Positions 1-47,211 are shown, counted from the first letter of the stretch. The stretch is DNA of 64,000 nucleotides from an uncultured Rhodospirillales bacterium (GCA_903865895.1 CAIPLM010000249.1:3032-67031); one strand, 5' to 3'. Notes: generated by a model from the sequence alone, not told the origin. A program made the numbers and translations.

Positions 1-408
1 GACCGGGGTGCCGGGCTGCTGGGCCGTCATCGCCGCGCCGGATGGCGGGGCAGTATCGGTCAGCCGCAGAACCTGGAGATTGGGCGCTCCGCCTTCGACA
101 ACGCTTGGCGCCTGATAAACCGTGACGAGCACCTGGGCCGGCCCGGAGCTCACGCGCACCAGGGCCGCGTCGCCGAAGGGCGTCATCCAGCCATCTTCCC
201 GGAACGTGGAGATGGTGACCGCCTCCGGCCGCCCGATCGGGCCGGGCGGCAGCGAGACGCGCACCCCGGGCAGCCCGGTCGCCACATCGGCTACCTTGGA
301 GGGATTGCATACGATGCAAAACAGGCCGGTATCCAGCGTCATCAGATGCCCGGAGACACGGAGTTCGTTGACCAGTTTCTGCGGCCGATCGGCAGTGGTT
401 TCGGACAT
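1..408 (-). CDS. hypothetical protein, N-terminal part only (ORF runs off the left edge)
   Basis: Not in the supplied ORF track because there is no stop in the window. A reverse-strand ATG at 406-408 opens a frame that stays open to position 1 (136 codons, MSETTADRPQKLVNELRVSGHLMTLDTG...). Codons are GC3-rich. It is co-directional with the glycosyltransferase gene and 109 nt downstream of it. No family recognised. Confidence 0.4.
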   Translation of the reverse strand, partial: MSETTADRPQKLVNELRVSGHLMTLDTGLFCIVCNPSKVADVATGLPGVRVSLPPGPIGRPEAVTISTFREDGWMTPFGDAALVRVSSGPAQVLVTVYQAPSVVEGGAPNLQVLRLTDTAPPSGAAMTAQQPGTPV

Positions 409-516
409 TCGCGTCTCTATGTTCCTGAAGTGCGATGGTGAGGACAGATGTATGTAGGTTTCGGTGCGCGGCTATACGGTATTCGTGCTGCGGTGATAAG
501 CGTTTAGCATAGGCCG

Positions 517-3500
517 TTACGCCCCCGCAGCCCAGCGGAGCCCAATAAACGCAGAGTTGATCGCTGCCGGCGGCAATCCGAGTGGCAGCAGCCACCCTCG
601 GCCGGTTTTGCGAATTCGTTCCCCGATGGCGCCAAGGTCGAACGCCGCGACACACAGCCCTGCCCGCCACGCCAGACCCAGGGTGAAACACCAGGTCTCC
701 GGCCAGATCGACGGCTGCCACGCCATGTCCAGGTCATGGGCACGAATCAAGCCAATGGCCTCCGATTCCTTGTATGGCCCGGTGACGAAAACGTGTCCGG
801 TTTCGATCAGCCGCTGATCGTCATGGGTATGCCCGATGACGGTAAAATGCAGGTTAAGCCGCCGGGCCGCGGCATTGCGGGCGCAAGCCAGCAAGACGTC
901 GTATCCCTTTTCGGTGCCGATGCCGCCGATCACCGCGATGCGCTCCGGCGCCCGCTGCAAGAGCCGCGCCGGCGGGTAGGTGGTATCATCCTCCAGCGGC
1001 TCGACGATCGGTGCGACATCGGGGAAATGCCGGCGCATCCGAGCGGCGACATCCTCAGAGGGTACCACGATGCGGCGCGAGCGGCGTAGATCCGCCGCCG
1101 AGCGGCCGCGTAGCGCACGAACGCCGATCGTCTCGGCCAGATTGCTCCCGGCATCGCGAACGCAGGCATCGCAGACCGCAGGATTTTCCGGCTCGCCACA
1201 GTAGCGGCTGTCGCGCCCGACCAGGCTGATGCGCGGGCAGAATGCCGCGTAATCATGCACGAAGGTCTCAACCGGAATGTCGAGCTTGGTTGCGAGCCGC
1301 AACACGGCGTGGTCGTGGCCGAGGAGATGATGCACCTCGATGCACTCCGGCCGGTCGCCGCGCAGTAATCGGGTGAGGGCGGCGAGGTCATCGGGCAGGC
1401 GGAAGCGCAGGTTGGGAAAACACGGCGAATCGGCCGGCAGCCCGCCCTCCTCGACAACGCAGACGCCGGGGAGATAGGCCGGCACGCCCTCGGTCGTCAT
1501 CGCCGAGCGCAGCACGATGGCGCGCCCGCCGGCCGCGCGAATGGCGATGCTGCGCTCCCGGATCACCCGTTCAACGCCGCCGCCGCTGGCGTGGGTGAGG
1601 AGCAGCACCGCGTGGTCCTTGCGCGCCATCCGCCACCGTTGCAGGTCAATCCGCCTGCGCGCCTCCGCGAGAGGATCCTCGGCCTGGAATGCGGCGATCA
1701 GCCGGTGATAGCCGGGGTGCGTGCGCTCGAGCACCGAGAGGTTGCGCTCGATGAGTTGCTCGCGCGCGGTGCCGAAGGACTGCCCGCCGACATGGGCGAC
1801 GAACACGCCGGGCGCCGCGACGTGGCGCCAGCCGAGATGGCGGGCACGGATGCAGAAATCATTCTCCTCGCCATAGCCTTGGGCGAAGAGGTCATCGCGG
1901 AACAGGCCGGTCTCCGCCAAGCATTCCCGGCGGATGTACATACAGAACCCGACGGCGCTGGGGATCTCCACCGCAGCCCCACGATTGGCCGCAGCGGCCC
2001 AGCGTGCCATGCGGCGCAGCTCATCACGGCCGGGTACCGGATTCCCGCCAGCGACGTTCGGATAGCTCAGGATCGTCGCATCATTGGACAGGGGCGTCGC
2101 CGAGCCGACATCGGGGGTGGCATGCACCACCGCGCCGAGAGCTTCGAGCCAGCCTGGGGGCACGATGGTGTCGCTGTTGAGCAGCACCACATCATGCGGC
2201 GCCGCGAGAGCCAGGGCGGCGCGAATGCCGGAGTTGGCGGCGCCGGGAAAGCCGCGGTTGAAGGGATGGCGGATCACCCTGATCCGCCGGTCACCGCGAT
2301 GGCGACGTGCCAGGGCGGCGATCTCCGGATCCGGCGAGGCGTCATCCACCACGATGACCTTGGTGCCCTCCGGCATGGTGTCCAGCACCGCGGACAGGCA
2401 CTGCCGCACCAGATCGGCACGGCCATATACCGGCACAACGACGGCTACCTTGCGGTCCGGCCGCGATGGGCAGTTCACCGCCACGCCCCGCACATCCGCC
2501 GGCACGCTGGACAGTTGCGCAATATCCGCCAGTTCGGCCGCCTCGCGGGGCATGAGCGCGGGGAAGCGCCCGGCCACCGCCCGAGCCGCGGCCATCGCAC
2601 CCTGCTGCTCGCCGAAGGGCGTGAGCGGGCTACCGAGCAAATGCCGGCCATTCTCGGCCATCACCGCGACCGGACCGCTCTGCCCGGCAAGCATCGCCGG
2701 GGTCAGGCGAAATCGCCTGGGGCGGGAGAGCGGTGTGCGCGCCACCATGTCCTGATCATCGGCGACAAACTCCTGGATCACCCGCCCGGGCGCGCCATCC
2801 GGCCCGAGCTCCCGTAACAGCAGCCGCGGGTTGCCTTCGGGTGCTCCAGGATGCCAGGCCCAGCCCTCGATCGTCCCATCCGCCGCGGCCCGCACCACGC
2901 CTTCGACACTGCGGATATCGCCGATCCGGATCGGACTGCCCAGCAAATGCTGCCCGCCCGCCATCACCTCCAGCAACCGGACATCGGGGGGAACGCGGCG
3001 GGGCCGGCCGCGCGCCGGCGCGCCATCGAGACGCATCACCACCGAACGTGCAGTCCCGCCGGCACGCCGCACCAGGATGGCGCCGTCCTGGCCAATGGCG
3101 CACCAGCCCGGCGCGCCAGCCGCCGCAGCGATGGCATCGGCAAGGCCCGGCAGATGCGGGGCAGCCGGCATCATATGCCCCGCAAAAGCGCGCGCCATCG
3201 CCGCCGCGGCGGTCTCCACGGCGCCGACGCGATGGCGGATGGTTGCCAATGCGAGCCACACCTCCCGGATGTCACCCTCCCGCGCCAAGCCCTCAAGCAG
3301 TTCGATCGCCGGTCCGAGCACGCCGGCCTGCATGCGGGCGGAGGCCAAGGAGAGGGTGATCGCCGCATCGCCCGGCGCTAGGCGATGGGCACGCTCCAGC
3401 CAGGGCAAGGCGTCGGCCGGGGGCCCGCCCACCAATGCCGCCTGGCCCTGGCGCCACGCCGCGGACGACAGCTCCTGCAACCATTCCGAGCGCGTCTTCA

Positions 3501-3609
3501 CCGGCGCAACGCGGGATCTCCACCGATTGCCGCTGGCATCGAGCGGTTCGGTAACCGCACGATCCGCGAATGACTCGACGGGCGATGCGCCAGCCGGGTC
3601 GTCGGTCAC
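517..3609 (-). CDS. multidomain glycosyltransferase: N-terminal TPR-like repeats + GT2 domain + C-terminal GT1/GT4-like domain
   Basis: The longest ORF (517..3846) overlaps the upstream gene by 240 nt. An in-frame GTG at 3607-3609 overlaps that gene's TGA (GTGA), so 517..3609 (1030 aa) is preferred. TPR-like helices are visible (LERAHRLAPGDAAITLSLASARMQAG...). GT2 signature: VAVVVPVYGRADL...KVIVVDDASPD...NRGFPGAANSG...LLNSD. The C-terminal ~350 aa is Rossmann-like and GT1/GT4-like. Confidence 0.8.
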   Translation of the reverse strand: MTDDPAGASPVESFADRAVTEPLDASGNRWRSRVAPVKTRSEWLQELSSAAWRQGQAALVGGPPADALPWLERAHRLAPGDAAITLSLASARMQAGVLGPAIELLEGLAREGDIREVWLALATIRHRVGAVETAAAAMARAFAGHMMPAAPHLPGLADAIAAAAGAPGWCAIGQDGAILVRRAGGTARSVVMRLDGAPARGRPRRVPPDVRLLEVMAGGQHLLGSPIRIGDIRSVEGVVRAAADGTIEGWAWHPGAPEGNPRLLLRELGPDGAPGRVIQEFVADDQDMVARTPLSRPRRFRLTPAMLAGQSGPVAVMAENGRHLLGSPLTPFGEQQGAMAAARAVAGRFPALMPREAAELADIAQLSSVPADVRGVAVNCPSRPDRKVAVVVPVYGRADLVRQCLSAVLDTMPEGTKVIVVDDASPDPEIAALARRHRGDRRIRVIRHPFNRGFPGAANSGIRAALALAAPHDVVLLNSDTIVPPGWLEALGAVVHATPDVGSATPLSNDATILSYPNVAGGNPVPGRDELRRMARWAAAANRGAAVEIPSAVGFCMYIRRECLAETGLFRDDLFAQGYGEENDFCIRARHLGWRHVAAPGVFVAHVGGQSFGTAREQLIERNLSVLERTHPGYHRLIAAFQAEDPLAEARRRIDLQRWRMARKDHAVLLLTHASGGGVERVIRERSIAIRAAGGRAIVLRSAMTTEGVPAYLPGVCVVEEGGLPADSPCFPNLRFRLPDDLAALTRLLRGDRPECIEVHHLLGHDHAVLRLATKLDIPVETFVHDYAAFCPRISLVGRDSRYCGEPENPAVCDACVRDAGSNLAETIGVRALRGRSAADLRRSRRIVVPSEDVAARMRRHFPDVAPIVEPLEDDTTYPPARLLQRAPERIAVIGGIGTEKGYDVLLACARNAAARRLNLHFTVIGHTHDDQRLIETGHVFVTGPYKESEAIGLIRAHDLDMAWQPSIWPETWCFTLGLAWRAGLCVAAFDLGAIGERIRKTGRGWLLPLGLPPAAINSAFIGLRWAAGA

Positions 3610-5414
3610 GCGGCCGGTTGCCCCGCTGGGGCGGCAGCCGGGGCCGGCACGTCGAGCGCGGCGAAATCCCCTTGCGCTTCGGCGAGGCCGAGCTGAATGG
3701 CCTGGGTGAACCAGAAGCGCGCCTCGTCGAGATTGGCATCGCCGGCCAGGCCGCGGGCGAGATAACGGCCCAGCATCATCATCGCATAGGCATGGCCACG
3801 CTCCGCCGACATGCGGAACCAGCCTTGCGCCGCCACCCGGTCCCACGGAACATCATGGCCGCCGCCGAGCATCGCGCCCATCGCGAACATCGCGCCGACA
3901 TGCCCGCCCTTGGCCGCGCGTTCGAAGAATTCCAGCGCCTTGGGATGGTCCTTGTCGCCGCCCACCCCGTTCACCAGCAACTCGGCATAGGCCACGAGCG
4001 CATCGAGCATGCCCGCTTCGGCCGCCTTGCCGATCCACACCCGGCCCTCCGCCGGATCCGCTGCGGTGCCGCGACCCTCGATCAGCATTCGGCCGTACCA
4101 GTACTGGGCATTGACCACCGATGGCGCGGCGCGGCGTAGCCACACCAGGGCCTGCGCATCATCCTTTGTCACGCCGACGCCCTCGGCAAGGCAGATACCG
4201 TAATTATAGGCGCCGACGAGGTCCCCGCCATTGGCCTCCTTCTCGAACCACTCGCGCGTGCGCTGCGCCTCCTCGGGCGCGGCCTCGCGTTGCAGAGCGA
4301 GTGTTGCGAGGTCGTAGCGTGAGGTTACGTCCCCCCCCTCGGCAGAGATCCGGAACCACCGGGCGGCTTCCTCGGGGTCCTTCGGAATTCCATTACCGTT
4401 GAGGTGCATCAGGCCGAGTGCCCGGGCCGCCGCACGGTGGCCGCCCTCGGCCGCGCGGCGATACCACATGCCGGCCTCGGCAAAGTTCGGCGGTAGGTCG
4501 CCACCCCTGGCATAGAGATCCCCAACCAAGGCGGCGGCATCGATGTCGCCCTGCAGCGCTGCGCGGCGCAGCCAGGATTCGCCCTCCTGCGGGTCCTTCG
4601 TCGTGCCGCCGCGCCCGTCGAGCAGGAACAGCCCGTAGCGCGCCTGCGCCGCCCGCAATCCGCGCACCGCGGCCTCGCGATAGAGCTCGACGGCCGCCTT
4701 AGGATCCGCCGGCGTACCTTGTCCCTGCTCGGTCATCGCGCCCAGCAGATAGAAGCCAGTGGCCAACCCCCCCGCCGCCGCGAGGCGCATCCACTTGATA
4801 GCCTCCTCATAGAGGGTCGGGTCGTCCTTGCGCAGCAAAGCCAAGCCGTAGCCGAGATAGCCTTGCGGACAATCGGCCTCGGCGGACAGCTTGTAGAGCC
4901 GCTCCGCTTCGTCGAGGTTGCGGAGCGTCTCCGGCCCGGCGGTAAGGATGTAGCCCAGCAGCGCCAGACCGTCCGGTGCGTTGGCCTCGGCGGCCTTCCG
5001 CGCCCACACGATCGCACGCTCGAAATCGGGCTGGCCGAGTTCCTGCGCCCCGAACAACGCGGCGGATGGCCGCGCACGCGAAACGTCGGCCGCTTCGGCT
5101 GCACGGCTCGGCTCCGCCCCCATCGCGCCTTGCAGGAACAAAGCCGCAAGCAGCGCGGCAGCATCCATATTGCCCCGCCCCGCCGCACGCTCCAGCCAGA
5201 ATGCCCCGTCGCGCACACTCCCTGGCACACCGGCCCCTTGCAGGTAGGCGCGTCCGACCAGGAATTCGGCACGCTCGTTACCCGCCTGCGCCAGCGGCGT
5301 GAGCTGGGCAAACGCGCCGACGGCGTCGCCGGCCGCGAGCATCGCCTCCGCCCGTTTCACGCGCGCTGCCGGCGACGCAAAACGGCTGCTGACCTTGCTG
5401 AGAAGTCCGCTCAT
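3606..5414 (-). CDS. Sel1-like repeat (SLR) protein, apparently cytoplasmic
   Basis: 602-aa ORF built almost entirely of ~36-aa Sel1-type repeats (pattern A..W..KAA..G...A...LG..Y..G.GV..D...A..W, roughly a dozen by eye). No signal peptide or TM helix at the N-terminus (MSGLLSKVSSRFASPAARVKRAEAML...). Confidence 0.85.
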   Translation of the reverse strand: MSGLLSKVSSRFASPAARVKRAEAMLAAGDAVGAFAQLTPLAQAGNERAEFLVGRAYLQGAGVPGSVRDGAFWLERAAGRGNMDAAALLAALFLQGAMGAEPSRAAEAADVSRARPSAALFGAQELGQPDFERAIVWARKAAEANAPDGLALLGYILTAGPETLRNLDEAERLYKLSAEADCPQGYLGYGLALLRKDDPTLYEEAIKWMRLAAAGGLATGFYLLGAMTEQGQGTPADPKAAVELYREAAVRGLRAAQARYGLFLLDGRGGTTKDPQEGESWLRRAALQGDIDAAALVGDLYARGGDLPPNFAEAGMWYRRAAEGGHRAAARALGLMHLNGNGIPKDPEEAARWFRISAEGGDVTSRYDLATLALQREAAPEEAQRTREWFEKEANGGDLVGAYNYGICLAEGVGVTKDDAQALVWLRRAAPSVVNAQYWYGRMLIEGRGTAADPAEGRVWIGKAAEAGMLDALVAYAELLVNGVGGDKDHPKALEFFERAAKGGHVGAMFAMGAMLGGGHDVPWDRVAAQGWFRMSAERGHAYAMMMLGRYLARGLAGDANLDEARFWFTQAIQLGLAEAQGDFAALDVPAPAAAPAGQPAA

Positions 5415-5445
5415 ACCCGAAATGCCCCGGCCTTACGCTGATACA

Positions 5446-6906
5446 TCATGGCTCACGATAGGCTTCCGTCACCGACGGCACCACGCGCGAGAAGAGATAT
5501 TCGACGAACGTGCGATACCCAACGAGGATATCCGTTTGACCGGACATACCCGGTGTTATTTTGAAGTAGCTCGGCAGATGGTGCAGAGTATTCTCCTCCA
5601 TCTTGACCCGCACTTTGTAATAGAGCGTTCCGAACGCCTGCTGGGAATTCGTGATGCCGACAGGCTGCGACAAGGCGTTGTACGGGCTGCGTGACGCATC
5701 CGGCTGGATCGAAATGACCCTGCCCACCATCGTGCCATGCGTGGCATAGGGGAAGGCATCAAACTTGATCGCCGCGCGCTGGCCGACCGCAACGAACCCC
5801 GCATCGGTCGAGTCAACCACCGCCTCGGCCACATAGTCGGTCTCCTTTGGCGTCAGGGAGACGACTTGGGCCCCCAACTGCACCACGGAGCCCACGTTGG
5901 CGACGGCAACGTCCATCACCGTGCCATCGAATGGCGCACGCAGCTCGATCAACGACAGGGCGTGGTTGGCGCGCGTCAGCGAATCCTGCAAGCCGGCGAG
6001 CTTGTCGCTCTGATCCTTCAGTGCCTGGGAAGTCTGGCTCTGCCAAGTCTGCCAGGCGGCATCGCGATCGGCGATCTTGGCGGCAAGCGAACCGCGGATC
6101 TGCTCAAGCTGTGCCTTTGCTACGTCCCTCAACCGTACCGCTTCGGCCCGCTGGTCCGCTGCGGAGATTGTGTTCAGCTGGCTTCCCACGCCGAGCCGCT
6201 CGAGATCGCGCCGCTTGTCCTCGGTCTTCGCGGCATATGCGAGCCGCTCACTATACTGGCGCAGGTCCCCCTCGGCCTGCATCAGTTGCGCCTGCAACGC
6301 CGCAATTTGCTGCGCGAAGCTCTCCATCTGAAACGTGATCTCGGCGTGCCGCTGGGTATAGAGCTGCGCCTGGACCTCGCCGTGCTTGGTGCCGTCCGAA
6401 AGATACAGCCGCCCGTCGAACTCCGCGCGCAACCGGATCGTCTCCTGCGTCAGCGAGGCGACCTGATCCTGATAGGACAGCACGTCGGCGGTCGTATTCG
6501 TTGGATCGAAGGTGACCAGCAAATCGCCCTTGTGGACCGGCTGGCCCTGCTGGACGTAGATTTTCCGGACAATGCCCGCATCAATCGCCGCCAAGCCGGT
6601 CGACGGCTCGGTCGCGACGATGCCCATCGTCCCACTCACGACGCGGTCAACCGGCATGAGCGTCAAGATCAGCATCAACGCCATGAACATCGTGAAGATG
6701 ATGTACGTCGTGTAGCGGGACCGCATCGGCACCGGCATGGCGAGCTGTGCGGCCGCGGGCGATTCGTATTCGAGAACCACCCGCTCGGTGCGTTCCGCCT
6801 CCAGCATCTCCGCGCCATCGGCTTTGCCCAGCCGGAGGCTCACGCCACGTGAGGCGCGCGTCACCTGCCGGGCGGCAGTGGTCACGTTCTTTGTCGGTTC
6901 GGCCAT
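5446..6906 (-). CDS. type I secretion membrane fusion protein, HlyD family
   Basis: Single N-terminal TM helix (YTTYIIFTMFMALMLILTLMPV) and a long coiled-coil centre. The C-terminal end (GMSGQTDILVGYRTFVEYLFSRV) is typical of HlyD-family T1SS adaptors. SD GAGAGG lies upstream of the ATG at 6906. The gene is 15 nt downstream of the ABC gene. Confidence 0.9.
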   Translation of the reverse strand: MAEPTKNVTTAARQVTRASRGVSLRLGKADGAEMLEAERTERVVLEYESPAAAQLAMPVPMRSRYTTYIIFTMFMALMLILTLMPVDRVVSGTMGIVATEPSTGLAAIDAGIVRKIYVQQGQPVHKGDLLVTFDPTNTTADVLSYQDQVASLTQETIRLRAEFDGRLYLSDGTKHGEVQAQLYTQRHAEITFQMESFAQQIAALQAQLMQAEGDLRQYSERLAYAAKTEDKRRDLERLGVGSQLNTISAADQRAEAVRLRDVAKAQLEQIRGSLAAKIADRDAAWQTWQSQTSQALKDQSDKLAGLQDSLTRANHALSLIELRAPFDGTVMDVAVANVGSVVQLGAQVVSLTPKETDYVAEAVVDSTDAGFVAVGQRAAIKFDAFPYATHGTMVGRVISIQPDASRSPYNALSQPVGITNSQQAFGTLYYKVRVKMEENTLHHLPSYFKITPGMSGQTDILVGYRTFVEYLFSRVVPSVTEAYREP

Positions 6907-6921
6907 AGGTCTCGACCTCTC

Positions 6922-9177
6922 TCAGGAACCGACGCTTGTCGACAAGGCCGCACGGGCACTTGAACGGAAGCTTTCCATATGACGGTTCTGTTGTTGCCAG
7001 AGCTGACGGTAAATCGTGCAGGTCTCCAGCAACTGGTTATGCGGCCCGATATCCACCATCTTGCCGCGGTCGAGTACCATGATCATGTCGCTGTCCACGA
7101 GTGAGGAAAGACGGTGGGACACGATGACCATCGTGCGATTGGCGGCGATGCGCGAGATGTTTGCGTTCACCAAGGCCTCGCTCTCCGGATCCAGCGCGCT
7201 GGTGGCTTCGTCGAGGATGAGGATGCGCGGATCATGGATCAGTGCGCGGGCAATGGCGAGGCGCTGGCGCTGGCCGCCGGAGAGGTTGGGCGAGCCTTCT
7301 TCCACCACGGTTTCATAGCCCTGCTGCATGCGCTCGATAAACTCCTCGGCGCCGGCCAGGCGGGCAGCACGCACCGCATCAGTCAAGGTGAGGCCCGACC
7401 GCCCGGCCAGCAGGTTGTCGCGCACCGTGCCGCGGAACAGGAAGTTCTCCTGCAACACCACACCGAAGCTGCGACGCAGATGGCCGAGATTGATTTCCCT
7501 CAAATCGACGCCATCGATCTTGATCTGCCCCTCGTATTCCCGGTTGATGCCCTGCAGCAAACGCGTGATCGTCGATTTGCCGGAGCCGCTTCGCCCGACC
7601 AACCCGAGCACGGTACCGGGGGGGACCTCGAAGGATATGTCATCGAGGGCCCGCGTCTTCGTGCCAGGATAGGTGAACTTCACCCCGCGGAAGGCAATCG
7701 CCCCCTCGAAACGTGGGCGTAGCCCGCTGCCAGGATTAAGTGTCTCGGGGCGGTTGTTGAGCACCAGGCCCACCATCATCACGGAAGCGCGCAGCTCCTC
7801 AATGTCCTGCAGCAGCTTTGACAGCGCGATCAGGGGTGACGAGACACGATTGGCGATCATCATGAAGGCAACGATGTGCCCCGAGGAAACGTCAACCCCG
7901 CTGATCGAGAGATAGGCGCCTACAAGCAACACACCACGGGTCATCAAGGTATCGAAGGGCGACACCAGGGTCTCTGGCCAGTTCGAGATATCATCGAGCC
8001 GGCGCTTCCAATACGATGCATCGGCGGCGCGCCTGTCCCACATCTCCCGCTGCGCTGATTCCAGGGCCAGCGATTTGATGGTGCGGATGCCGTGCAAGGT
8101 TTCGACCAGCACGATGTTCTTCTGCACTTCGAATTCCAGCCACCGCGCATAGGTACGGCGGATCGGCTTGATGAACGAACTGATGATCATCGCCATGACG
8201 CCGCCCAGCCCGACCACCATCCAGGCCATCGGAACGCTCATCCAGAACAGCACGGGCAAGACGACCAACAGGTTCATGATGTCGAACATGGTCGTGAGCA
8301 TCTTGCCGGTAACGAAACCCCTCACCTTGCCGGTCTGCGCGATGAGATAGCTGATCCGGCCGGTCGGAGTGCGTTCGAAATAATCGATCGGCAGGCCGAG
8401 CAGGCGTTTGAAGACGAACAGGTTCATCTTGATATCAAGGCGCAAGGCGACGATCGCCGACAACTGGCGCCGGACGTAGCCCAGCAGAGCCTCGAAAAAG
8501 AGAATCGCCAGAAGCAGGGCGGCCGTCATCCAGAGGGTCGCCAAAACGCGGTAGCTCATGACCTTGTCGATGATGATCATGATCATCAGCGCCGGAACCA
8601 TCGACACGAACGACAGGACCACACCGCCCATCATCAGGTCGGAAATGATACGCCCTTCGGCGAGCACGACGCGGGCAATCCACCCCATGTCCCATGGCTC
8701 ATTATCGGCACGCGACTGACGATCCGGACGGATCAGCAAGGCCTCGCCGGACCAGAGCTGGGACAGGCGGAGTTCGTCGACCGCGACACCTTCCTGCTCG
8801 GTCTCGATCTCGGGGTCCTTGAGCCAGACCACGTTCCGCACCGAATCGGGGCGGATCATCATCGCGCCCGTGCCGTCCTTCATCAACAGGATGACTGCCC
8901 CCGGGGAGGTCATCTTGACGAGCTGCCGCCACGTCAACTGGGCCGCCTTGCACCAGAGCCCGCTCTGGGAGACCCATTCGGCCAGCGCCGCCGGCGAGGG
9001 CGCCTCACCGGGGCTGATCCGCAAATCCTCGCGCGACAAGTCAGCGCCCTGCTCGCGGGCACCGGCGACTATGGAACGCAACCGAAGGTCGAGCGGCGTA
9101 TGCACGCTCTCTGCTCCGGGTTCGTAGCTCGGATCACGCGGATCAGGATCAGGCGAAGTCACCGAAGGGGAGTCCAA
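6922..9177 (-). CDS. type I secretion ABC transporter (permease/ATPase) with N-terminal C39-like domain
   Basis: TTG start with GAGG 8 nt upstream. The N-terminal ~150 aa resembles the HlyB-type C39-like domain but has no Cys/His catalytic dyad. Multi-TM exporter core follows. Walker A GRSGSGKST, ABC signature LSGGQRQR, Walker B ILILDEATSALD, H-loop VSHRLS. Confidence 0.9.
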   Translation of the reverse strand: MDSPSVTSPDPDPRDPSYEPGAESVHTPLDLRLRSIVAGAREQGADLSREDLRISPGEAPSPAALAEWVSQSGLWCKAAQLTWRQLVKMTSPGAVILLMKDGTGAMMIRPDSVRNVVWLKDPEIETEQEGVAVDELRLSQLWSGEALLIRPDRQSRADNEPWDMGWIARVVLAEGRIISDLMMGGVVLSFVSMVPALMIMIIIDKVMSYRVLATLWMTAALLLAILFFEALLGYVRRQLSAIVALRLDIKMNLFVFKRLLGLPIDYFERTPTGRISYLIAQTGKVRGFVTGKMLTTMFDIMNLLVVLPVLFWMSVPMAWMVVGLGGVMAMIISSFIKPIRRTYARWLEFEVQKNIVLVETLHGIRTIKSLALESAQREMWDRRAADASYWKRRLDDISNWPETLVSPFDTLMTRGVLLVGAYLSISGVDVSSGHIVAFMMIANRVSSPLIALSKLLQDIEELRASVMMVGLVLNNRPETLNPGSGLRPRFEGAIAFRGVKFTYPGTKTRALDDISFEVPPGTVLGLVGRSGSGKSTITRLLQGINREYEGQIKIDGVDLREINLGHLRRSFGVVLQENFLFRGTVRDNLLAGRSGLTLTDAVRAARLAGAEEFIERMQQGYETVVEEGSPNLSGGQRQRLAIARALIHDPRILILDEATSALDPESEALVNANISRIAANRTMVIVSHRLSSLVDSDMIMVLDRGKMVDIGPHNQLLETCTIYRQLWQQQNRHMESFRSSARAALSTSVGS

Positions 9178-9625
9178 AATCGTAACCTCATCTTGCTCGC
9201 CGCATCGCGGCTATGCGGCATCAATTCCGCCGCGTTCATACATTGATCGAGCGAAGCCCAATCGCCGGTGTCGCCATCCTCGCCACCGTGTGAAATCTCC
9301 GCAATCTAACAAAAATTGTCATCAAGCCTTGCTGGCGGCCGGACCGACCATGAACTCCTTATACTGCGTTCACGTCCCACCCCCAAGCGCGCCGGATGAT
9401 TGCGGGTATAACATATCCATGAACCGGATATTATTAAACCAACCGGCACCCTATGTAGCGGGAGGTTTACAGCTTCCGGCGACACAACTCTGTTCACGAC
9501 GCCGTGATTGCGGGTGCAATCAAGGTTGCTGTGAAAGCGCAGAATTGGCTGTTGCCCTCCATCGAGGCATAATGCCCCTCAGCGCGAACGATCTCTCGGA
9601 CGACAATCTCAACAGGTGACCTGGC

Positions 9626-10054
9626 ATGCAGCAGTTGATAATCGGCGACACGGGGCGGGACGTGGTCGTTTGGCAACGCTTCCTGGTGTCCATCTGGTTC
9701 GCCCAACAGGACGAAATGCTGCACGGCGTCTTTGACGAGGCGACCGACACTGCGACCCGGGCTTTCCAGACCACCAACGGCCTGCATGATACCGGGATCG
9801 TGGACCGGCTGACCTGCGAGGCGGCCGAAGCTCAAGGACTGAAAACAGTCGATACATCAGTAAGCTGGCTGCCATCGATCGGCACCTTAGTGTGGCTCAC
9901 ATGCCTTGTTGTCCTCACGAGCGTGAGTCTTGTTTCGATTCTGCAGGTGACCCCGACGATTCTTGCGTCGGGCGGAAAGGTTGTGCTGCCGGTGCCGCCC
10001 CAGTTTTTCGGCAATTCGCCCCCGGTCAAGCAATGCCCCGGATGGTTCTGCTGA
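9626..10054 (+). CDS. putative peptidoglycan-binding domain protein with C-terminal TM segment
   Basis: 142-aa ORF in a visibly lower-GC stretch. The N-terminus matches the PG_binding_1 pattern (IGDTGRDVVVWQRFL...HGVFDEATDTATRAFQTTNGLHDTGIVDRLT). A hydrophobic helix follows (IGTLVWLTCLVVLTSVSLVSIL). Confidence 0.5.
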   Translation: MQQLIIGDTGRDVVVWQRFLVSIWFAQQDEMLHGVFDEATDTATRAFQTTNGLHDTGIVDRLTCEAAEAQGLKTVDTSVSWLPSIGTLVWLTCLVVLTSVSLVSILQVTPTILASGGKVVLPVPPQFFGNSPPVKQCPGWFC

Positions 10055-10070
10055 CGCGGAGCAGCCCCGT

Positions 10071-10415
10071 TCAATCCGCGACGTAACGCCCCGACACAAA
10101 CGCATCCGTTACAATCGCGTCCAGCACAGCGGCCCTGCTCCCCTCATCGACATCGACGACCACTCGGGCAAATTGCGGCCGGCCCGACCGCGCGCGATGC
10201 ACGTAGGCCGCCGTCAGGGCGCGAGCCCAGGCCGATCGGCCGCAGCACTGGCAAGCCGCGTGATGCCCGGTGAGGCCACTGGGAGTGCTGACAGCGATGC
10301 GCACGACACCGGGAGGTGGCACAAAATCGTGATCCGTCAGAACAGCGTCCCCCGCCCGCGCGCAGGATGACAGGCCGATAACAACAGGAACGCGCGACTC
10401 GCTGGCATCAATCAT
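10071..10415 (-). CDS. hypothetical small protein with CxCC motif (degenerate CobW/G3E-like?)
   Basis: 114-aa ORF, divergent from the sahR-like gene with only 38 nt between start codons. Contains HHAACQCCG followed by ...RVVVDVDEG..., reminiscent of the CxCC region of COG0523/CobW proteins. No P-loop is visible. Confidence 0.45.
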   Translation of the reverse strand: MIDASESRVPVVIGLSSCARAGDAVLTDHDFVPPPGVVRIAVSTPSGLTGHHAACQCCGRSAWARALTAAYVHRARSGRPQFARVVVDVDEGSRAAVLDAIVTDAFVSGRYVAD

Positions 10416-10453
10416 ATGCTAGACATAAGGATATCTTTATACGATAACAAGTC
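10416..10453. promoter_or_regulatory. AT-rich divergent control region with candidate ArsR/SahR-type operator
   Basis: The entire intergenic spacer between the two divergent start codons is 38 nt (atgctagacataaggatatctttatacgataacaagtc). It is far more AT-rich than the surroundings. It contains the imperfect palindrome AAGGATATCTTT (10427-10438) and ATATC-N7-GATAA (10431-10447). Confidence 0.25.
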
Positions 10454-11422
10454 ATGGAAACCCTGCTGACCGCGCTTCGCGCCGCCGCCGAACCGACGCG
10501 CCTGCGCCTGCTGGCGTTGGCGGCCGGCGGACAATTTTGCGTGATGGAGTTCGCCGAAATCCTCGGACAGTCCCAGCCGCGCCTCTCGCGCCACCTGCGC
10601 CTGCTTGGCGAGGCCGGGCTGCTGGAGCGGGCGCGGGAGGGGGCCAATACCTGGTTCACCCTGCCGCCGGCCGAGAGCGATGCCGGATCGCTGGTCCGCT
10701 CGCTGCTCGCCCGCATCCCCGAGAATGACGAGGCGCTGGCCGCCGACCGGCGCCATGCGGCCCGTGTGCTGGCGGAGCGGGCCCGGGCGGCATCTGAGGC
10801 ATTCCAGCGCACCGGGGCCGATTGGGACGAGATGCGTGCCCTTAATCTTGCGGCCGCCGATGTCGAGCGGGCGCTGCTCGACCTGCTGCCCCCCGCCGCC
10901 ATCGGCCGGATGCTCGATATCGGCACCGGCACCGGCGCCCTGCTGGAACGGCTCGCTCCCCGCGTCTCCTCCGCCCTCGGCGTCGATGCCAGCCGGACGA
11001 TGCTGGCCCTCGCCCGCACCCGCCTCGCCAAGCCTGGCCTCGACCATTGCTCCGTCCGCCATGCCGATATGTACCGCCTGCCGCTGGCCGATGCCGGGTT
11101 CGATCTCGTGGTGCTGCAAATGGTGCTGCATTACGCCGAAGACCCCTCGGGCGTGCTCGCCGAGGCCGCCCGTGTGCTGCGTCCCGGCGGCCGCGTCGTC
11201 GTCGTCGATCTCGCACCGCATGCCGATACCGCGGTGACCACCCGCCTCGCCCATCGCTGGCCCGGCTTCTCCGATGCCGCGATGCTCGAAACTTTTGCCC
11301 AGAACGGCCTCAGCATCCACGCCGCGCAAACCGTGCGCGGCCCGCTCGATGTCCGCATCTGGTCCGCCGGCCATGCTGGCCTCCCCGCCCCTGCCGACCT
11401 TGCCATGGAAGCCACGCGATGA
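10454..11422 (+). CDS. sahR: ArsR-family wHTH fused to SAM-dependent methyltransferase-like domain (SahR-type regulator of the methionine cycle)
   Basis: N-terminal ArsR HTH (LRAAAEPTRLRLLALAA...FCVMEFAEILGQSQPRLSRHLRLLGEAGLL). C-terminal class I methyltransferase fold (MLDIGTGTGALLERL...LRPGGRVVVVD). Its TGA overlaps the metH ATG (ATGA at 11419-11422). The symbol is assigned from architecture and context only. Confidence 0.75.
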   Translation: METLLTALRAAAEPTRLRLLALAAGGQFCVMEFAEILGQSQPRLSRHLRLLGEAGLLERAREGANTWFTLPPAESDAGSLVRSLLARIPENDEALAADRRHAARVLAERARAASEAFQRTGADWDEMRALNLAAADVERALLDLLPPAAIGRMLDIGTGTGALLERLAPRVSSALGVDASRTMLALARTRLAKPGLDHCSVRHADMYRLPLADAGFDLVVLQMVLHYAEDPSGVLAEAARVLRPGGRVVVVDLAPHADTAVTTRLAHRWPGFSDAAMLETFAQNGLSIHAAQTVRGPLDVRIWSAGHAGLPAPADLAMEATR

Positions 11423-14400
11423 CCCGTCTCCCCCTGCTCGATGCCCTCCGCGAGCGCGTCCTCCTCGCCGATGGCGCCACCGGCACCCATTTCCAGGCGA
11501 TGACCTTGGACATCGATCGCGACTACTGGGGCCAGGAGAACTGCACCGATATCCTTTGCCTCTCCCGCCCCGACCTGGTGCGCGAACTCCATCGCGGCTT
11601 CTTCGCCGCCGGCGCCGATATCGTGGAAACCAACAGCTTCGGCGGCTCCCCGATCACCCTCGGCGAATTCGGCCTCTCCGATCGCGCCTTCGAGCTCAAC
11701 AAGCGCGCCGGCGAACTGGCGCGCGAGGCGGCCGAAATGTTCGCCGATGACCGTCCCCGCTACGTGCTCGGCTCCATCGGCCCCGGCACCAAGCTGCCCT
11801 CCCTCGGCAACATCGCGTACGACCCGCTGGAAGACGCCCTCGCCGAGCAGGCCCGTGGCCTCATCGCCGGCGGCGTCGACGCGATCCAGATCGAGACCTG
11901 CCAGGACCCCCTGCAGATCAAGGCCGCCATCAACGGCGCCAAGCGGGCCCGCGCCGCGGCCGGCACCACCACGCCGATCTTCGTCTCCGTCACCGTCGAA
12001 ACCACCGGCACCCTGCTGGTCGGCCCCGACGTCCCGGCGGCGGCGACCATCGTGCATGCGCTCGATATCCCCGTCCTCGGCCTCAACTGCGCCACCGGCC
12101 CGCAGGAAATGGCGGAGCATGTCCGCTGGCTCGCCGCCAACTGGCCCGGGCTGATCTCGGTGATGCCCAACGCCGGCCTGCCGGAACTGGTCGACGGCCA
12201 GGCCCATTTCCCCCTCGCCCCCGATGCCATGGCCTCCTGGCTCGAACGCTTCGTGGCGGAAGACGGCGTGAACCTCATCGGCGGCTGCTGCGGCACGACC
12301 CGCGCCCACATCTCCGCGCTCGACGCGATGCTCAAAAGGCGCGGCGAACCCCGCCCCGCCCCGGTCGAGCGCCGCTCCATCTGGGTCCCCTCCGTCGCCT
12401 CGCTCTACCAGGCCGTGCCGCTGCGCCAGGAGAACGCCTTCTTCGCCATCGGCGAGCGCTGCAACGCCAACGGCTCCAAGAAGTGGCGCGAGCTGCAAGA
12501 GAAGGCCGACTGGGACGGTTGCGTCGCCATGGGCCGCGAGCAGATCGACGAGGGCTCCCACAGTCTCGATATCTGCACCGCCTTCGTCGGCCGCGACGAA
12601 ATCGCCGAGATGAACGAGGTGATCACCCGCTTCACCGCCTCGGTGAACTCCCCCCTGGTGATCGACAGCACCGAAACCCCGGTGCTCGAAGCCGCGCTCA
12701 AACTCCACGGCGGCAAGGCCATCATCAACTCCATCAACTTCGAGGACGGAGAACGCGCCGCCGCCGATCGCATGACTCTCGCCCGCCGCTTCGGCGCCGC
12801 GGTGATCGCCCTCACCATCGACGAAAAGGGCATGGCCAAAACCGCCCGGGAGAAGCTCGACGTCGCCGCCCGCCTGGTTGATTTCGCCTGCACCCAGCAC
12901 GGCCTCCCGCAATCCGACCTGATGATCGACCCGCTGACCTTCACCATCGCCACCGGCAACGAGGACGACCGCAAGCTCGGCGAATGGACGCTCGACGGCA
13001 TTCGCATGATCCGCGATCGCTTCCCCGATGTGCAGATCGTGCTGGGCCTCTCCAACATCTCCTTCGGCCTCAACCCCGCCGCTCGCGCTGTGCTGAACTC
13101 CGTCTTCCTCGATCACGCCGTCCGCGCCGGGATGACCGGGGCCATCGTCCACGTCTCGAAAATCCGCCCCCTCCACCAGATCGCCGCCGAAGAGGTGCAG
13201 GTCTGCGAAGACCTCATCTTCGATCGCCGCCGCGAGGGCTACGACCCCCTGCAACGCCTGCTCGAACTCTTCGCCGACCGCAAAGCCGCCGACGCGGTGA
13301 AGAAAAAGCGCGCCGAGACCGTCGAGGGCCGCCTCAAGGACCGCATCGTCGACGGCGACCGCAAGGGCCTCGCCGACGAGCTCGACGAGGCGCTGAAAAC
13401 CCATGCCCCTCTCGCCATCATCAACGACATCCTGCTCGACGGCATGAAGGTCGTCGGCGAGCTGTTCGGCGCCGGCAAAATGCAGCTCCCCTTCGTGCTG
13501 CAATCCGCCGAAACCATGAAGGCCGCCGTCGCCCATCTCGAACCCCTCATGGAGCGCGTCGAGGGCCAGGAACGCGGCACCATCGTGCTCGCCACCGTCC
13601 GCGGCGACGTGCATGACATCGGCAAGAACCTGGTCGACATCATCCTCACCAATAACGGCTACCGGGTGATCAATCTCGGCATCAAGGTCCCACTGGCCGA
13701 TATGCTCACCGCCGTGCGCGAGCACCAGGCCCACGCCATCGGCATGTCCGGCCTGCTGGTGAAATCCACCGTGGTGATGCGCGAGAATCTTGAGGAAATG
13801 TCCCGTCAGGGCCTCGATGTTCCCGTGCTGCTCGGCGGCGCGGCCCTGACGCGCAACTACGTCGAGGATGATTGCGTCCGCGCCTATGGCTCGGGCCGGG
13901 TCGCCTATGCGCGCGATGCCTTCGATGGCCTGCACCTGATGGATCGCGTCACCGGCAACGGCTTCGATGACTATCTCGCCGCCGTGCAGGCCAAGCGCGC
14001 CGGCAAGGCCCGCAACACCACCCGCACCCTCGGCCAGGCCGCCCCCGCCGCCTTCCGCCCGGTCGATGTCGCCGCCGTTCGCCAACGGCGCCAGGCCATC
14101 ACCCGTGACGTGCCCCCGATCGAGCCGCCCTTCTGGGGCGCCCGCATCATCGAGGCCTCGCCCAAGGCGATCGTGCCCTTCGTCAACGAACGCAGCCTGT
14201 ACCAATTCCAATGGGGCTTCCGCAAACAGGGCCGCTCGCTCGACGAATTCCTCGGCTGGGCCCGCCAGGAACTCCGTCCCGTCATGCGCCGCATGCTCGC
14301 CCTCTGCGACGAGCAGGACATCCTCAAGCCGCAAGCCGCCTACGGCTACTGGAAGGCGGCCGGCCAGGGGAATGACCTCATCCTCTTCGAGCAGGACGGC

Positions 14401-14934
14401 ACCACCGAGGCCGCCCGCTTCTCCCTCCCTCGCCAGCCCAAGGCCGATGGCGAGTGCATCGCCGACTTCTTCCGCGACGTCGACGACGCCCCGCGGCAGC
14501 GTAGCGCGAGCGGCCATATCGAGCGCGACGTCATCGGCCTGCAAGTCGTCACCGTCGGCCAGAAAGCCTCCGACATCGCCCGCGTCTGGTTCGAGGAAAA
14601 CCGCTACCAGGACTACCTCTATCTCCACGGCCTCTCCGTCGAAATGGCCGAGGCGATGGCCGAGAACACCCATAAGCGCATCCGCGCCGAATGCGGTTTC
14701 GCCGGCGAGGACGATCGGGACTTGGAGAAAATGCTCGCCCAGGGCTATCGCGGCAGCCGCTACTCCTTCGGCTATCCCGCCTGCCCGCGCCTGGAGGACC
14801 AGGAGCCGATCCTCAAGCTCCTCGGTGCCGATCGCATCGGCATCTCGCTCTCCGATGAATCCCAGCTGCATCCCGAACAATCCACCAGCGCCCTGGTTGT
14901 GCTCAATCCAAAGGCGAAATACTTTTCGGTATGA
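11419..14934 (+). CDS. metH: cobalamin-dependent methionine synthase
   Basis: The listed ORF starts at 11047. The in-frame ATG at 11419 (MTRLPLLDALRERVLLADGATGTHFQ...) overlaps the upstream stop. The protein contains homocysteine S-methyltransferase, pterin-binding, B12-binding (GDVHDIGKN) and AdoMet-activation modules. 1171 aa. Confidence 0.95.
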   Translation: MTRLPLLDALRERVLLADGATGTHFQAMTLDIDRDYWGQENCTDILCLSRPDLVRELHRGFFAAGADIVETNSFGGSPITLGEFGLSDRAFELNKRAGELAREAAEMFADDRPRYVLGSIGPGTKLPSLGNIAYDPLEDALAEQARGLIAGGVDAIQIETCQDPLQIKAAINGAKRARAAAGTTTPIFVSVTVETTGTLLVGPDVPAAATIVHALDIPVLGLNCATGPQEMAEHVRWLAANWPGLISVMPNAGLPELVDGQAHFPLAPDAMASWLERFVAEDGVNLIGGCCGTTRAHISALDAMLKRRGEPRPAPVERRSIWVPSVASLYQAVPLRQENAFFAIGERCNANGSKKWRELQEKADWDGCVAMGREQIDEGSHSLDICTAFVGRDEIAEMNEVITRFTASVNSPLVIDSTETPVLEAALKLHGGKAIINSINFEDGERAAADRMTLARRFGAAVIALTIDEKGMAKTAREKLDVAARLVDFACTQHGLPQSDLMIDPLTFTIATGNEDDRKLGEWTLDGIRMIRDRFPDVQIVLGLSNISFGLNPAARAVLNSVFLDHAVRAGMTGAIVHVSKIRPLHQIAAEEVQVCEDLIFDRRREGYDPLQRLLELFADRKAADAVKKKRAETVEGRLKDRIVDGDRKGLADELDEALKTHAPLAIINDILLDGMKVVGELFGAGKMQLPFVLQSAETMKAAVAHLEPLMERVEGQERGTIVLATVRGDVHDIGKNLVDIILTNNGYRVINLGIKVPLADMLTAVREHQAHAIGMSGLLVKSTVVMRENLEEMSRQGLDVPVLLGGAALTRNYVEDDCVRAYGSGRVAYARDAFDGLHLMDRVTGNGFDDYLAAVQAKRAGKARNTTRTLGQAAPAAFRPVDVAAVRQRRQAITRDVPPIEPPFWGARIIEASPKAIVPFVNERSLYQFQWGFRKQGRSLDEFLGWARQELRPVMRRMLALCDEQDILKPQAAYGYWKAAGQGNDLILFEQDGTTEAARFSLPRQPKADGECIADFFRDVDDAPRQRSASGHIERDVIGLQVVTVGQKASDIARVWFEENRYQDYLYLHGLSVEMAEAMAENTHKRIRAECGFAGEDDRDLEKMLAQGYRGSRYSFGYPACPRLEDQEPILKLLGADRIGISLSDESQLHPEQSTSALVVLNPKAKYFSV

Positions 14935-14937
14935 GGA

Positions 14938-15085
14938 TTCGAAGGAAGGGCTTCTTTTTGAAAAAAGAAGTGCAGCAGCGCTCTCGCGGATCGAAGCCGA
15001 TCCACTGTCGCTCCCGCCGCCGCTACGCTCCGCTTCGCGTCAGAAGTTTTTTGCTTCTTTTTTTCAAAAAAGAAGCCCTTCTCTT
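14938..15085 (+). repeat. AT-rich composite palindromic intergenic element, copy 1 (divergent centre)
   Basis: Terminal inverted arms gaagggcttcttttt...aaaaagaagcccttc. Internal hairpins cttctttttgaaaaaagaag (14951-14970) and gcttctttttttcaaaaaagaagc (15053-15076). The right end is near-identical to copies 2 and 3 (aagttttttgSttctttttttcaaaaaagaaS). Confidence 0.8.
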
Positions 15086-15992
15086 TTATCTTCTCTCCCT
15101 CCTCTCCGCCTGCGCCGAACCCCCACCCAACAGCGCCGCCGCCTGCGCGCTGGAGCGTCGCGGCGAGTTCCAGCTCAACTTCGGCGACGGTCTGCCCACC
15201 ATTCCGGTCACCCTCGATGGGTCCTCCGGCAACCTGCTGTTCGATACCGGCGCCTCGATGACCACCCTGTCCGCAGTGGCGGCAGCGCGGATGGATCTGC
15301 TGCACAACGGCAACATGCGCATCACCTCCCACGGCATCGGCGGCAAATCCGAGGCGATCGCCGCGGACGTCGCCCGCTTCCGCATCGGTGACATGGAGCT
15401 GCAACGCCGCACCGTCATGGTGATCCCCTTCGAACTGCGCGGCTTCAAGGCCGGCCCGCCCGACGGCCTGCTCGGCTTCGACATCTTCTCGCAGTTTGAC
15501 GTCGAGTTCGATCTGATGACCGGCCGCGGCACCTTCTACCGCCCGCGCAACTGCCCCTCCGCGGTGCCGAATTGGCTGCTCGCCTCCAACCGCTTCGTCA
15601 TCCCCAGCACCACCCCCAGCGGCAAACTGCAAATCGAGGTCGAGCTCGACGGCAAACGCCTGGTCGCCACCGTCGACACTGGCGCCGGCGGCACCCTGGT
15701 CAGCTCGGCGGCGGCAGCGAAGCTCGGCGTCACCGCCCAGCAACTCTCCTCCGCCCGCGCCATCGCCGGCTACGGCGTGGCCCCAACCGACGTGCAAATG
15801 CGCGTCGTGCGTTTCCGCGAACTCCGCGTCGGCCAGGAAACCGCGAAAACCCCCGAACTCGCCATCACCGACCTCCCGCCAGGCGCCGGTGACATGCTGC
15901 TGGGCATGAACTACCTGCGCAACCGCAAGCTCTGGATCTCCCTCTCCTCCCGCACCCTCCACCTCAGCATCCCCCAGGCGCAGACGCGTTAA
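15051..15992 (+). CDS. retropepsin-like (two-lobed) aspartyl protease, probable lipoprotein
   Basis: Two DTG motifs (LLFDTGASMTTL and ATVDTGAGGTLV), as in bacterial retroviral-type aspartyl protease families. Lipobox LLSAC. The start is uncertain. TTG at 15051 gives MLLFFKKEALLFYLLSLLSAC. The listed ORF start, ATG 14931, overlaps the metH stop but would read through the repeat element. Confidence 0.7.
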   Translation: MLLFFKKEALLFYLLSLLSACAEPPPNSAAACALERRGEFQLNFGDGLPTIPVTLDGSSGNLLFDTGASMTTLSAVAAARMDLLHNGNMRITSHGIGGKSEAIAADVARFRIGDMELQRRTVMVIPFELRGFKAGPPDGLLGFDIFSQFDVEFDLMTGRGTFYRPRNCPSAVPNWLLASNRFVIPSTTPSGKLQIEVELDGKRLVATVDTGAGGTLVSSAAAAKLGVTAQQLSSARAIAGYGVAPTDVQMRVVRFRELRVGQETAKTPELAITDLPPGAGDMLLGMNYLRNRKLWISLSSRTLHLSIPQAQTR

Positions 15993-16777: not shown

Positions 16778-17006
16778 GGCCTTTATAATAATACGTGAGT
16801 TAGATCGCCGTCAAGGACAAATATCCATATTCGAAGATTTTTTGCCCCATCACCCCCCGGGCTTCCGGCCGCACACCCCCACGCGCCCGTCCCGCCCTGC
16901 CCCCCATCACCCAGCCGCTCCGGTGGATGAACTTCGGCATCTAGCTTTCGCGGCAATCGCATGTAAACTCGAATAATTGCCACTTCGAGCCGCACGGACC
17001 CCGCCC

Positions 17007-22341: not shown

Positions 22342-22489
22342 CTCCGCCTCCAACGCTTGCCTGGGAATGGCCTAGCACCGGGCTGGTTAGGGATGTGTTC
22401 ACGAGCAGGAGAGGACGGGCGGGCCGCCGATCAACCCCGCGTGAGCGAGCGGCTTGCCTGCCTCGCCGGTTGGCGGCAGAACATCGGCC

Positions 22490-42023: not shown

Positions 42024-43030
<1,007 letters not shown>

Positions 43031-47198: not shown

Positions 47199-47211
47199 GC
47201 TGGTGACCCGC

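Follow-up and report, generated by a model that had tools for sequence, protein, structure and literature searches.

A conserved six-gene module joining type I secretion genes, a Sel1-like repeat protein and glycosyltransferases, and its possible role in glycoprotein export

We analyzed a window of 64,000 nucleotides of DNA from an uncultured Rhodospirillales bacterium (GCA_903865895.1 CAIPLM010000249.1:3032-67031). At its start, on the minus strand, lies an operon that joins the genes of a type I secretion system (T1SS) to those of a Sel1-like repeat protein and of glycosyltransferases. The first gene encodes an ATP-binding cassette (ABC) exporter of the HlyB/LssB architecture (6922-9177; 751 amino acids from TTG 9177, or 727 from GTG 9105). 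It is followed by a HlyD-family type I secretion membrane fusion protein (MFP) with one N-terminal membrane helix (5446-6906; 486 amino acids), a cytoplasmic Sel1-like repeat protein, SLR (3606-5414; 602 amino acids), and a soluble multidomain glycosyltransferase, GT (517-3609; 1030 amino acids from GTG 3609). Open reading frame (ORF) calls leave 15 nucleotides between ABC and HlyD and 31 between HlyD and SLR, and SLR and GT overlap by 4 nucleotides (GTGA). A contig from the same genome (L081), with independent gene calls, showed identical spacing and an ABC start 24 codons later. The start of GT agrees with these calls and with a 1030-amino-acid database protein of 100% identity.

The original prediction, made from the sequence alone, had described four co-directional, tightly packed genes with these gaps and the GTGA overlap, and both our coordinates and the L081 calls agree with it. 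Its start codon for ABC, TTG 9177, is possible, but the call on L081 is GTG 9105, and the start of this gene is uncertain. Its limits of the unit (517-9177) proved too narrow, as a fifth gene starts at 408 and a sixth lies outside the window. The minus-strand frame from ATG 408 is the most conserved frame 3' of GT, being found in 73 of the 80 related loci described below, and it exits the window. This is gene X, which encodes a ChW-like protein; its first 136 codons are in the window (408-1, minus strand), and the full gene on L081 (13202-14155) encodes 317 amino acids. There, X is followed by GT4b (L081 14220-15524; 434 amino acids), a GT4 glycosyltransferase with Glyco_trans_4_3 and Glycos_transf_1 domains, and then by a convergent cyclase gene. 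The full operon has six genes, ABC-HlyD-SLR-GT-X-GT4b, of which the window covers four and a half. An apparently conserved ORF at 122-457 on the plus strand is the antisense shadow of X, and the idea of an RNA gene 3' of GT was dropped, as no Rfam family, tRNA or tmRNA was found within 1-12000.

A scan of species-representative genomes for relatives of GT returned 560 loci, and the best 80, labeled nearly all as Acetobacteraceae or Rhodospirillales, were examined. The full order ABC-HlyD-SLR-GT-X-GT4b was present in 59 of the 80, far beyond chance. The original prediction had proposed gene-order conservation as a check, and its outcome is strongly positive. Most of the remaining 21 loci are cut by contig ends, and four are clear orphan GT paralogues. 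The orphan paralogues in L032, L040, and L053 lie among unrelated housekeeping genes and were uninformative; only the one in L079 was informative. The flanks of the module vary, with MetH and an ArsR-methyltransferase at some loci and a GNAT/amidase gene at others. Across the 80 loci, no gene is conserved 3' of the module and no small ORF (at least 50 amino acids) is conserved beside it; no double-glycine precursor was found. Because the flanks vary and nothing beside the module is conserved, the conserved unit is exactly six genes. In the 59 complete loci, it contains no priming transferase, flippase, polymerase, or ABC-2 exporter. The X family comprises 351 distinct cluster representatives at E<=1e-30, and the module is kept in hundreds of species (Acetobacteraceae).

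The stretch before the ABC gene (9178-9625) is non-coding and contains no conserved ORF. It presumably carries the promoter and the 5' leader of the operon. The 2-kb bin 8001-10000 has a G+C content of 0.60, below that of most of the window. A promoter and terminator scan of the operon gave nothing over shuffled controls, and a consensus promoter scan of the L081 equivalent of 9178-9625 gave nothing above chance on the operon strand.

Profile searches of the four proteins encoded in full in the window upheld all the domain calls of the original prediction. The ABC protein contains the membrane (PF00664, ABC_membrane, E 1.6e-26) and ATPase (PF00005, ABC_tran, E 3.4e-34) domains. Its two best models are TIGR01846 HlyB (502 bits; cutoff 725.55) and TIGR03375 LssB (423 bits; cutoff 693.1), though both scores are below the cutoff, and both alignments extend into the N-terminal domain. 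MsbA and glucan exporters also matched, with lower scores. The best single-half match in the PDB was HlyB (7sgr/8dck, E 5e-106). A profile of the N-terminal domain from 21 orthologues was collinear with HlyB residues 8-144, with weak significance (E 0.5). Peptidase_C39 matched 5 of these 21 orthologues weakly (best E 1e-3), and no other family recurred. The N-terminal ~170 amino acids of the window protein contain one histidine and one cysteine, whose order is wrong for the C39 dyad, and neither residue type is invariant at any position among the 21 orthologues. Because of this missing dyad and the weak, collinear matches to HlyB and Peptidase_C39, the N-terminus of ABC is best described as an inactive C39-like domain, whose homology is weak but consistent. 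A C39-like domain with a single, misplaced cysteine and histidine is what had been predicted. A bacteriocin exporter had been pictured with a functional C39 peptidase and a double-glycine leader peptide, and neither was found here.

The second T1SS protein passes the curated type I HlyD model (TIGR01843, 289.7 bits; cutoff 208.65) and matches Pfam HlyD_3 and Biotin_lipoyl_2, and its hydrophobicity peaks at residues ~66-86. None of the scanned window ORFs matched an OEP/TolC domain, in line with the earlier statement that a TolC gene is missing. Profile matching placed 10 Sel1 repeats in SLR (E 1.8e-69; 228 bits, cutoff 30.7). Neither a signal peptide nor a membrane helix was detected in SLR, here or across 61 orthologues, as the original prediction had held for the window protein.

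Pfam and PDB profiles and an AlphaFold2 model (predicted local distance difference test, pLDDT, 83) divide GT into tetratricopeptide repeats (TPR; residues 40-164), a beta-sandwich (168-320), a GT-A domain of family GT2 (387-610), a helical linker, and a GT-B domain of family GT4 (667-1023). The TPR-like start of the protein, already noted in the original prediction, was seen in both the profile matches and the model. The catalytic halves match PF00535 (E 1.3e-19) and PF13439/PF13692, respectively, and Foldseek aligned the model with GT-A and GT-B enzymes at a probability of 1.00. These matches are generic: polypeptide GalNAc-transferases, WrtF, and chondroitin polymerase for the GT-A half, and PimA, MshA, and BshA for the GT-B half. 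Conserved motifs are kept in both halves, with D422, D423, D480, and E581-D584 invariant. GT2 and GT4/GT1 were the only models to match, and no relation to GT41 was seen. Signal peptides and membrane helices are likewise absent from GT, X, and GT4b, both in the proteins of this genome and in the orthologues.

The model of X (pLDDT 81) consists of two beta-rich domains joined by an Ala/Pro linker, with a Lys/Ala/Pro-rich tail. Conserved cysteines occur in X, whose gene shows the strongest conservation in the set. The same-genome X scored 20.1 bits against ChW (PF07538), just under the gathering cutoff of 22; all 39 of the 39 aligned family members matched ChW at E<=0.01 (best 3e-6). Three ChW-like repeats are readable by eye in the C-domain, which superposes on predicted phage lysin models (root-mean-square deviation 2.6-3.3 Å, E 2e-5). 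A comparison of the X fold with the PDB returned no match at E<1e-3, and profile comparison found no relation between X and GT. ChW domains occur in Gram-positive surface proteins and endolysins; ChW triplets have been proposed as cell-wall anchors, with an unknown ligand (PMC5817068). The linker between the two X domains is highly variable in length, as seen from an orthologue at L022 (12985-14178) with an enlarged linker of QAPGQQ repeats and from the family member P0252 (563 amino acids), which has a ~250-residue linker rich in Pro, Gln, Gly, and Met.

The function of X became clearer in a sister clade, namely Azospirillum and relatives. A search of the X profile against 1.84 billion representatives found several proteins of 1284-1357 amino acids in which X follows a full GT. 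A homologue search with one of these fusions listed about 60 proteins of 1230-1450 amino acids with >90% of the fusion covered, including those of Azospirillum halopraeferens, Azospirillum sp. A39, and 'Roseomonas genomospecies 6'. By tblastn, GT (38-44% identity; none reported for L086) and X (29-34%) lie within a single called gene. Because X is fused to GT, and nucleotide-sugar-dependent glycosyltransferases act in the cytoplasm, X is an accessory part of the glycosyltransferase rather than a cargo secreted by itself. Secreted cargo had been our first working idea for X, and it was downgraded after the GT-X fusions were found. The X tail, rich in Lys and Pro, is presumably unlike known type I signals, which also counts against X as a cargo.

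Eight distinct contexts of the fusion were read (L083 and L085-L091; L084 duplicates L083). GT4b always comes after GT-X, often with a small methyltransferase between them. In 7 of the 8 loci, a small protein (114-358 amino acids) is encoded immediately upstream of GT-X, and these proteins are mutually homologous; at the eighth (L088), the start of such a protein lies at the contig end. They contain GGxGxD motifs and the usual RTX-type C-terminal module, with an isoelectric point mostly of 4-4.5, mostly no cysteine, ~19% Gly, and ~20% Ser+Thr. By these features, the RTX-like proteins have a profile that is classic for type I cargos, although their family lacks any long stretch of conserved sequence. 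Two loci carry, upstream of GT-X, a short RTX-like gene of unusually high His content (L087 9541-9942, 133 amino acids; L091 9599-9943, 114 amino acids), and these versions may be degenerate or specialized. An RTX-like gene also lies directly upstream of the orphan GT paralogue in the Acetobacteraceae locus L079. Beside this pair, L079 encodes a 439-amino-acid protein (13184-14503, plus strand) whose C-terminal half resembles a Hint (intein/hedgehog-type) domain, followed by a protein with TPR plus Gly_transf_sug. The original prediction had stated that the operon has no cargo gene. This stands for the window in that no RTX-like gene is linked to the operon, but a homologous one adjoins GT-X in the sister clade.

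T1SS and/or SLR homologues lie nearby in 4 of the 8 fusion loci. L085 has ABC (with a faint C39 match), HlyD, OEP, and SLR in one convergent operon, with the OEP gene inside the homologous T1SS operon and no other glycan genes around. This locus is a self-contained set of RTX-like, GT-X, GT4b, ABC, HlyD, OEP, and SLR genes. ABC, HlyD, and SLR are near the fusion in L087, HlyD and SLR in L083, and SLR in L088. The sister-clade ABC proteins are 43-46% identical to the window ABC, with most of the N-terminal domain included in L085, and for the SLR proteins of this clade, identity to the window SLR is 27-38%. The SLR gene overlaps the preceding MFP or outer membrane protein (OMP) gene of the T1SS in L083, L085, and L087. 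SLR is translationally coupled to the T1SS genes in these three loci and to GT in the window. Because SLR lies near the T1SS genes in the sister-clade loci and overlaps the MFP or OMP gene, it is a constant companion of T1SS of this type, and it may act as an adaptor of the system.

Read together, these sequence features suggest that the module probably makes and exports a sugar-coated surface protein. Our preferred explanation, held tentatively, is that an RTX-type cargo is glycosylated in the cytoplasm and that this step is coupled to type I export through SLR, the cargo gene being unlinked in the lineage of the window. GT, X as a detachable ChW-type glycan-binding subunit, and GT4b would build a glycan on an unfolded RTX-type protein. 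SLR and the inactive C39-like domain of ABC would then hold this protein and hand it over to the HlyB/HlyD-type exporter, which would move it out of the cell with an unlinked TolC as its partner. We favor this explanation because it accounts for self-contained modules without lipid-carrier or glycan-export genes, for the RTX-like gene being strictly adjacent to GT-X, for the TPR and SLR arrays, and for SLR being coupled to the T1SS genes as well as to GT. The RTX glycoproteins oscillin and SwmA speak for it by analogy (PMC3034196). The original prediction had proposed that cytoplasmic recognition, glycosylation, and T1SS export are coupled. This gained indirect support from the RTX-type gene upstream of GT-X in 7 of the 8 sister-clade loci and from the T1SS or SLR genes near 4 of them, but GT may act on a protein or make a free glycan, and the polysaccharide clusters around several sister-clade loci lend some weight to the alternative that the original prediction had named.

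A more specific proposition would be that this is a T1SS dedicated to a glycoprotein. The cytoplasmic GT with its ChW module would decorate a small RTX-type protein, and SLR, as a previously unrecognized T1SS component, would deliver it to the C39-like domain, with glycosylation and export mechanically coupled. In this strong form the proposal is possible, though on the unlikely side. If true, it would also explain how oscillin and SwmA gain their sugars.

Several points weigh against cytoplasmic glycosylation of an exported RTX-type cargo. T1SS are thought to carry unfolded chains, whereas here a glycosylated chain would need to pass. The HlyB and LssB scores of ABC are below the cutoff. No RTX-like homologue was found in the window or in the flanks of L001-L078 (roughly 75 Acetobacteraceae module loci). 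The RTX-like protein is inferred to serve as cargo and as glycan acceptor at once. In its fusion of GT-A and GT-B domains, combined with a glycan-binding module, the enzyme resembles a disaccharide-repeat polymerase. Lastly, several sister-clade loci have polysaccharide-cluster contexts that fit a free glycan. L086 lies in a polysaccharide cluster with Wzm/Wzt (with Wzt_C), an acyltransferase, and rml genes, and L089 has an ABC-2 pair directly after GT4b.

These contexts lead to the main rival, an EPS II-like or S-layer-like arrangement. Here, GT, X, and GT4b would make a lipid-linked surface polysaccharide that leaves by an unlinked route, and the T1SS would separately secrete a protein needed for or anchored to the polymer, with no covalent link between the two. 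There is a precedent in Sinorhizobium meliloti, where ExpD1/ExpD2 secretes ExpE1 within the exopolysaccharide II (EPS II) cluster and T1SS mutants lose EPS II (PMC1403797). The Wzm/Wzt genes with Wzt_C, the ABC-2 pair, and the rml, DegT, and methyltransferase genes of the sister-clade loci would suit such a pathway. So would the dual GT-A/GT-B enzyme, which resembles the disaccharide-repeat polymerases chondroitin and heparosan synthase, and the ChW-type module of X, which matches phage lysin models and belongs to a class of proposed cell-wall anchors (PMC5817068). However, the module occurs in 59 loci, and the self-contained set in L085, without glycan export or priming genes. Nor does the arrangement explain why the RTX-like and GT-X genes are strictly adjacent or why SLR is translationally coupled to the T1SS genes and to GT alike. 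We consider it unlikely, although it is the strongest competitor of the glycosylated-cargo explanation.

The two further explanations are less likely than either of these. As the original prediction had offered as its alternative, the ABC/HlyD pair might export the product of GT, X, and GT4b, a glycan or glycolipid, with SLR and X as scaffold and chain-binding parts. Such a function would fit a module composed only of transport genes, glycosyltransferases, and repeat proteins, and the lower-scoring matches of ABC to MsbA and glucan exporters. It is improbable, however, in view of the best ABC matches, which are to the protein exporters HlyB and LssB, the MFP that passes the type I HlyD model, the retention of a conserved C39-like domain, which in HlyB is a protein-substrate binding domain, and the linkage of a bona fide RTX-type cargo in relatives. 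The proposal that X or SLR, both without a signal peptide, is itself the T1SS cargo in Acetobacteraceae draws on the ChW triplet of extracellular type in X (Gram-positive ChW domains are predicted to mediate surface anchoring; PMC5817068), on X being a separate protein here with a polycationic Lys/Ala/Pro-rich tail, and on the operon encoding no other candidate, but it is very improbable given that X forms the C-terminal part of a cytoplasmic GT in about 60 listed sister-clade proteins, has conserved cysteines in the most conserved gene of the set, and that SLR is found with the T1SS also at loci that have an RTX cargo.

Other genes of the window were inspected as well. Divergent from the ABC gene is a small PG_binding_1 protein with one membrane helix (9626-10054, plus strand), whose conservation is limited to the three closest relatives (L001, L002, and L016). 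A 114-amino-acid ORF without a Pfam match (10071-10415, minus strand) is co-directional with the operon, ~0.9 kb upstream of ABC, and weakly conserved in 12 loci (37% identity). Another apparently conserved ORF (10412-11374, minus strand) is the antisense shadow of an ArsR-type helix-turn-helix domain fused to an S-adenosylmethionine (SAM) methyltransferase (10454-11422, plus strand). This fusion gene is directly upstream of metH (11419-14934, plus strand), and about 25 loci show synteny of these two genes with the module. The ORF 11047-14934, considered as a cargo, is methionine synthase MetH; as listed from 11047 it is over-extended, and its real start is near 11419. Directly after metH lies a gene for two retropepsin-like aspartyl protease domains with a lipoprotein-like N-terminus (14931-15992, plus strand).

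A giant Gly/Ala/Thr/Ser-rich repeat protein is encoded at 16977-21013 (plus strand). Its ORF 16977-20756 (1259 amino acids) seems to continue, after a frame change near 20400, into the ORF 20510-21013, an apparent folded C-terminal domain. The region has a G+C content of 0.74 and a strong AT skew, and the protein has no Pfam match, no obvious signal peptide, and a cargo-like composition. It was rejected as a linked cargo, as no homologue lies beside the module at other loci and no RTX-like similarity was detectable. Farther on are a RuBisCO large-chain-like gene with the catalytic domain only (22445-23593, plus strand; E 4.5e-20), which may encode a RuBisCO-like protein and not a true carboxylase, and a Bat-like aerotolerance-type cluster (36368-43249, minus strand) of BatA/DUF4159 (965 amino acids), a 770-amino-acid protein without a Pfam match, and a MoxR AAA ATPase. 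A phosphomannomutase/phosphoglucomutase gene adjoins that of a sugar-nucleotidyl transferase (45789-48117, minus strand), a possible sugar-donor supply ~37 kb from the operon.

In the usual description, type I secretion involves three components and a cargo, and acylation is, to our knowledge, the only well-studied modification of a T1SS cargo. The module adds a dedicated cytoplasmic Sel1-repeat protein and a set of glycosyltransferases to the T1SS. If the exported product is a glycoprotein, the module would give a testable answer to how RTX glycoproteins get glycosylated and whether a T1SS carries a glycosylated chain. If it is a polysaccharide, the module would be a compact model for why certain exopolysaccharides, EPS II of S. 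meliloti among them, depend on a T1SS, which is unexplained. Experiments are feasible in cultured carriers of the module, including Rhodopila globiformis DSM 161, Rhodovastum atsumiense, and Azospirillum halopraeferens.

Among known systems, HlyB-HlyD-TolC of Escherichia coli shares with the module an ABC half-transporter with an inactive N-terminal C39-like domain, a HlyD-type MFP, and an unlinked TolC, and HlyB is the best solved-structure match for the single half-transporter. In contrast to the haemolysin system, no RTX toxin or acyltransferase gene is present here, SLR and two glycosyltransferases are co-transcribed with the exporter, and ABC scores 502 against 725 bits. In the S-layer locus of Caulobacter crescentus, the RsaA T1SS (RsaD/E) has neighboring O-antigen genes, and the glycan is the O-antigen of the lipopolysaccharide, made by a conventional pathway. 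The likeness is a T1SS cargo that depends on a glycan from neighboring glycosyltransferases; the RsaA locus is not known to have an SLR protein or a glycosyltransferase fused to a ChW module. In glycocin systems, a peptide is first glycosylated in the cytoplasm by a SunS-type GT2 enzyme with helical repeats and then leaves through an ABC exporter with a C39-family domain. Glycocin exporters have an active Cys/His peptidase and act on double-glycine leaders, whereas here no conserved Cys/His and no conserved small-peptide gene were seen. TPR-glycosyltransferases that act on proteins, such as OGT of family GT41 and Caulobacter FlmG, are soluble cytoplasmic enzymes with an N-terminal TPR array. 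GT likewise has a TPR array before its catalytic domains, but these are GT2 and GT4, not GT41, and they share the polypeptide with a beta-sandwich and, in relatives, also with a ChW module.

Exporters of the PrtD/PrtE-like class are not known to carry a C39-like domain. ExpD1/ExpD2 of S. meliloti has been described as PrtD/PrtE-like (PMC1403797). The EPS II (galactoglucan) cluster, compared here by organization alone, also brings together a T1SS, a small secreted RTX-like protein (the Ca-binding ExpE1), and several glycosyltransferases, and in outline it resembles the sister-clade string of RTX-like, GT, methyltransferase, and GT genes. No SLR, TPR-GT2-GT4 fusion, or ChW module is described there. 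Oscillin and SwmA of cyanobacteria are RTX proteins reported as glycoproteins, for which the cited review names no glycosyltransferases and no operon link to a T1SS (PMC3034196). They would be glycosylated before export, because their RTX family is exported by T1SS; they are large, and the RTX-like proteins here have 114-428 amino acids. The original prediction knew of no characterized T1SS with a dedicated glycosyltransferase. That statement needs to be qualified by ExpD1/ExpD2-ExpE1, which lies within a glycosyltransferase cluster (PMC1403797), and by the glycosylated RTX proteins (PMC3034196), although our literature searches found no paper describing the module. Each part belongs to a known family, and it is the combination that is new: a T1SS with a cytoplasmic SLR, a TPR-GT2-GT4 enzyme with a ChW module, and a GT4 partner, accompanied in relatives by a small RTX protein.

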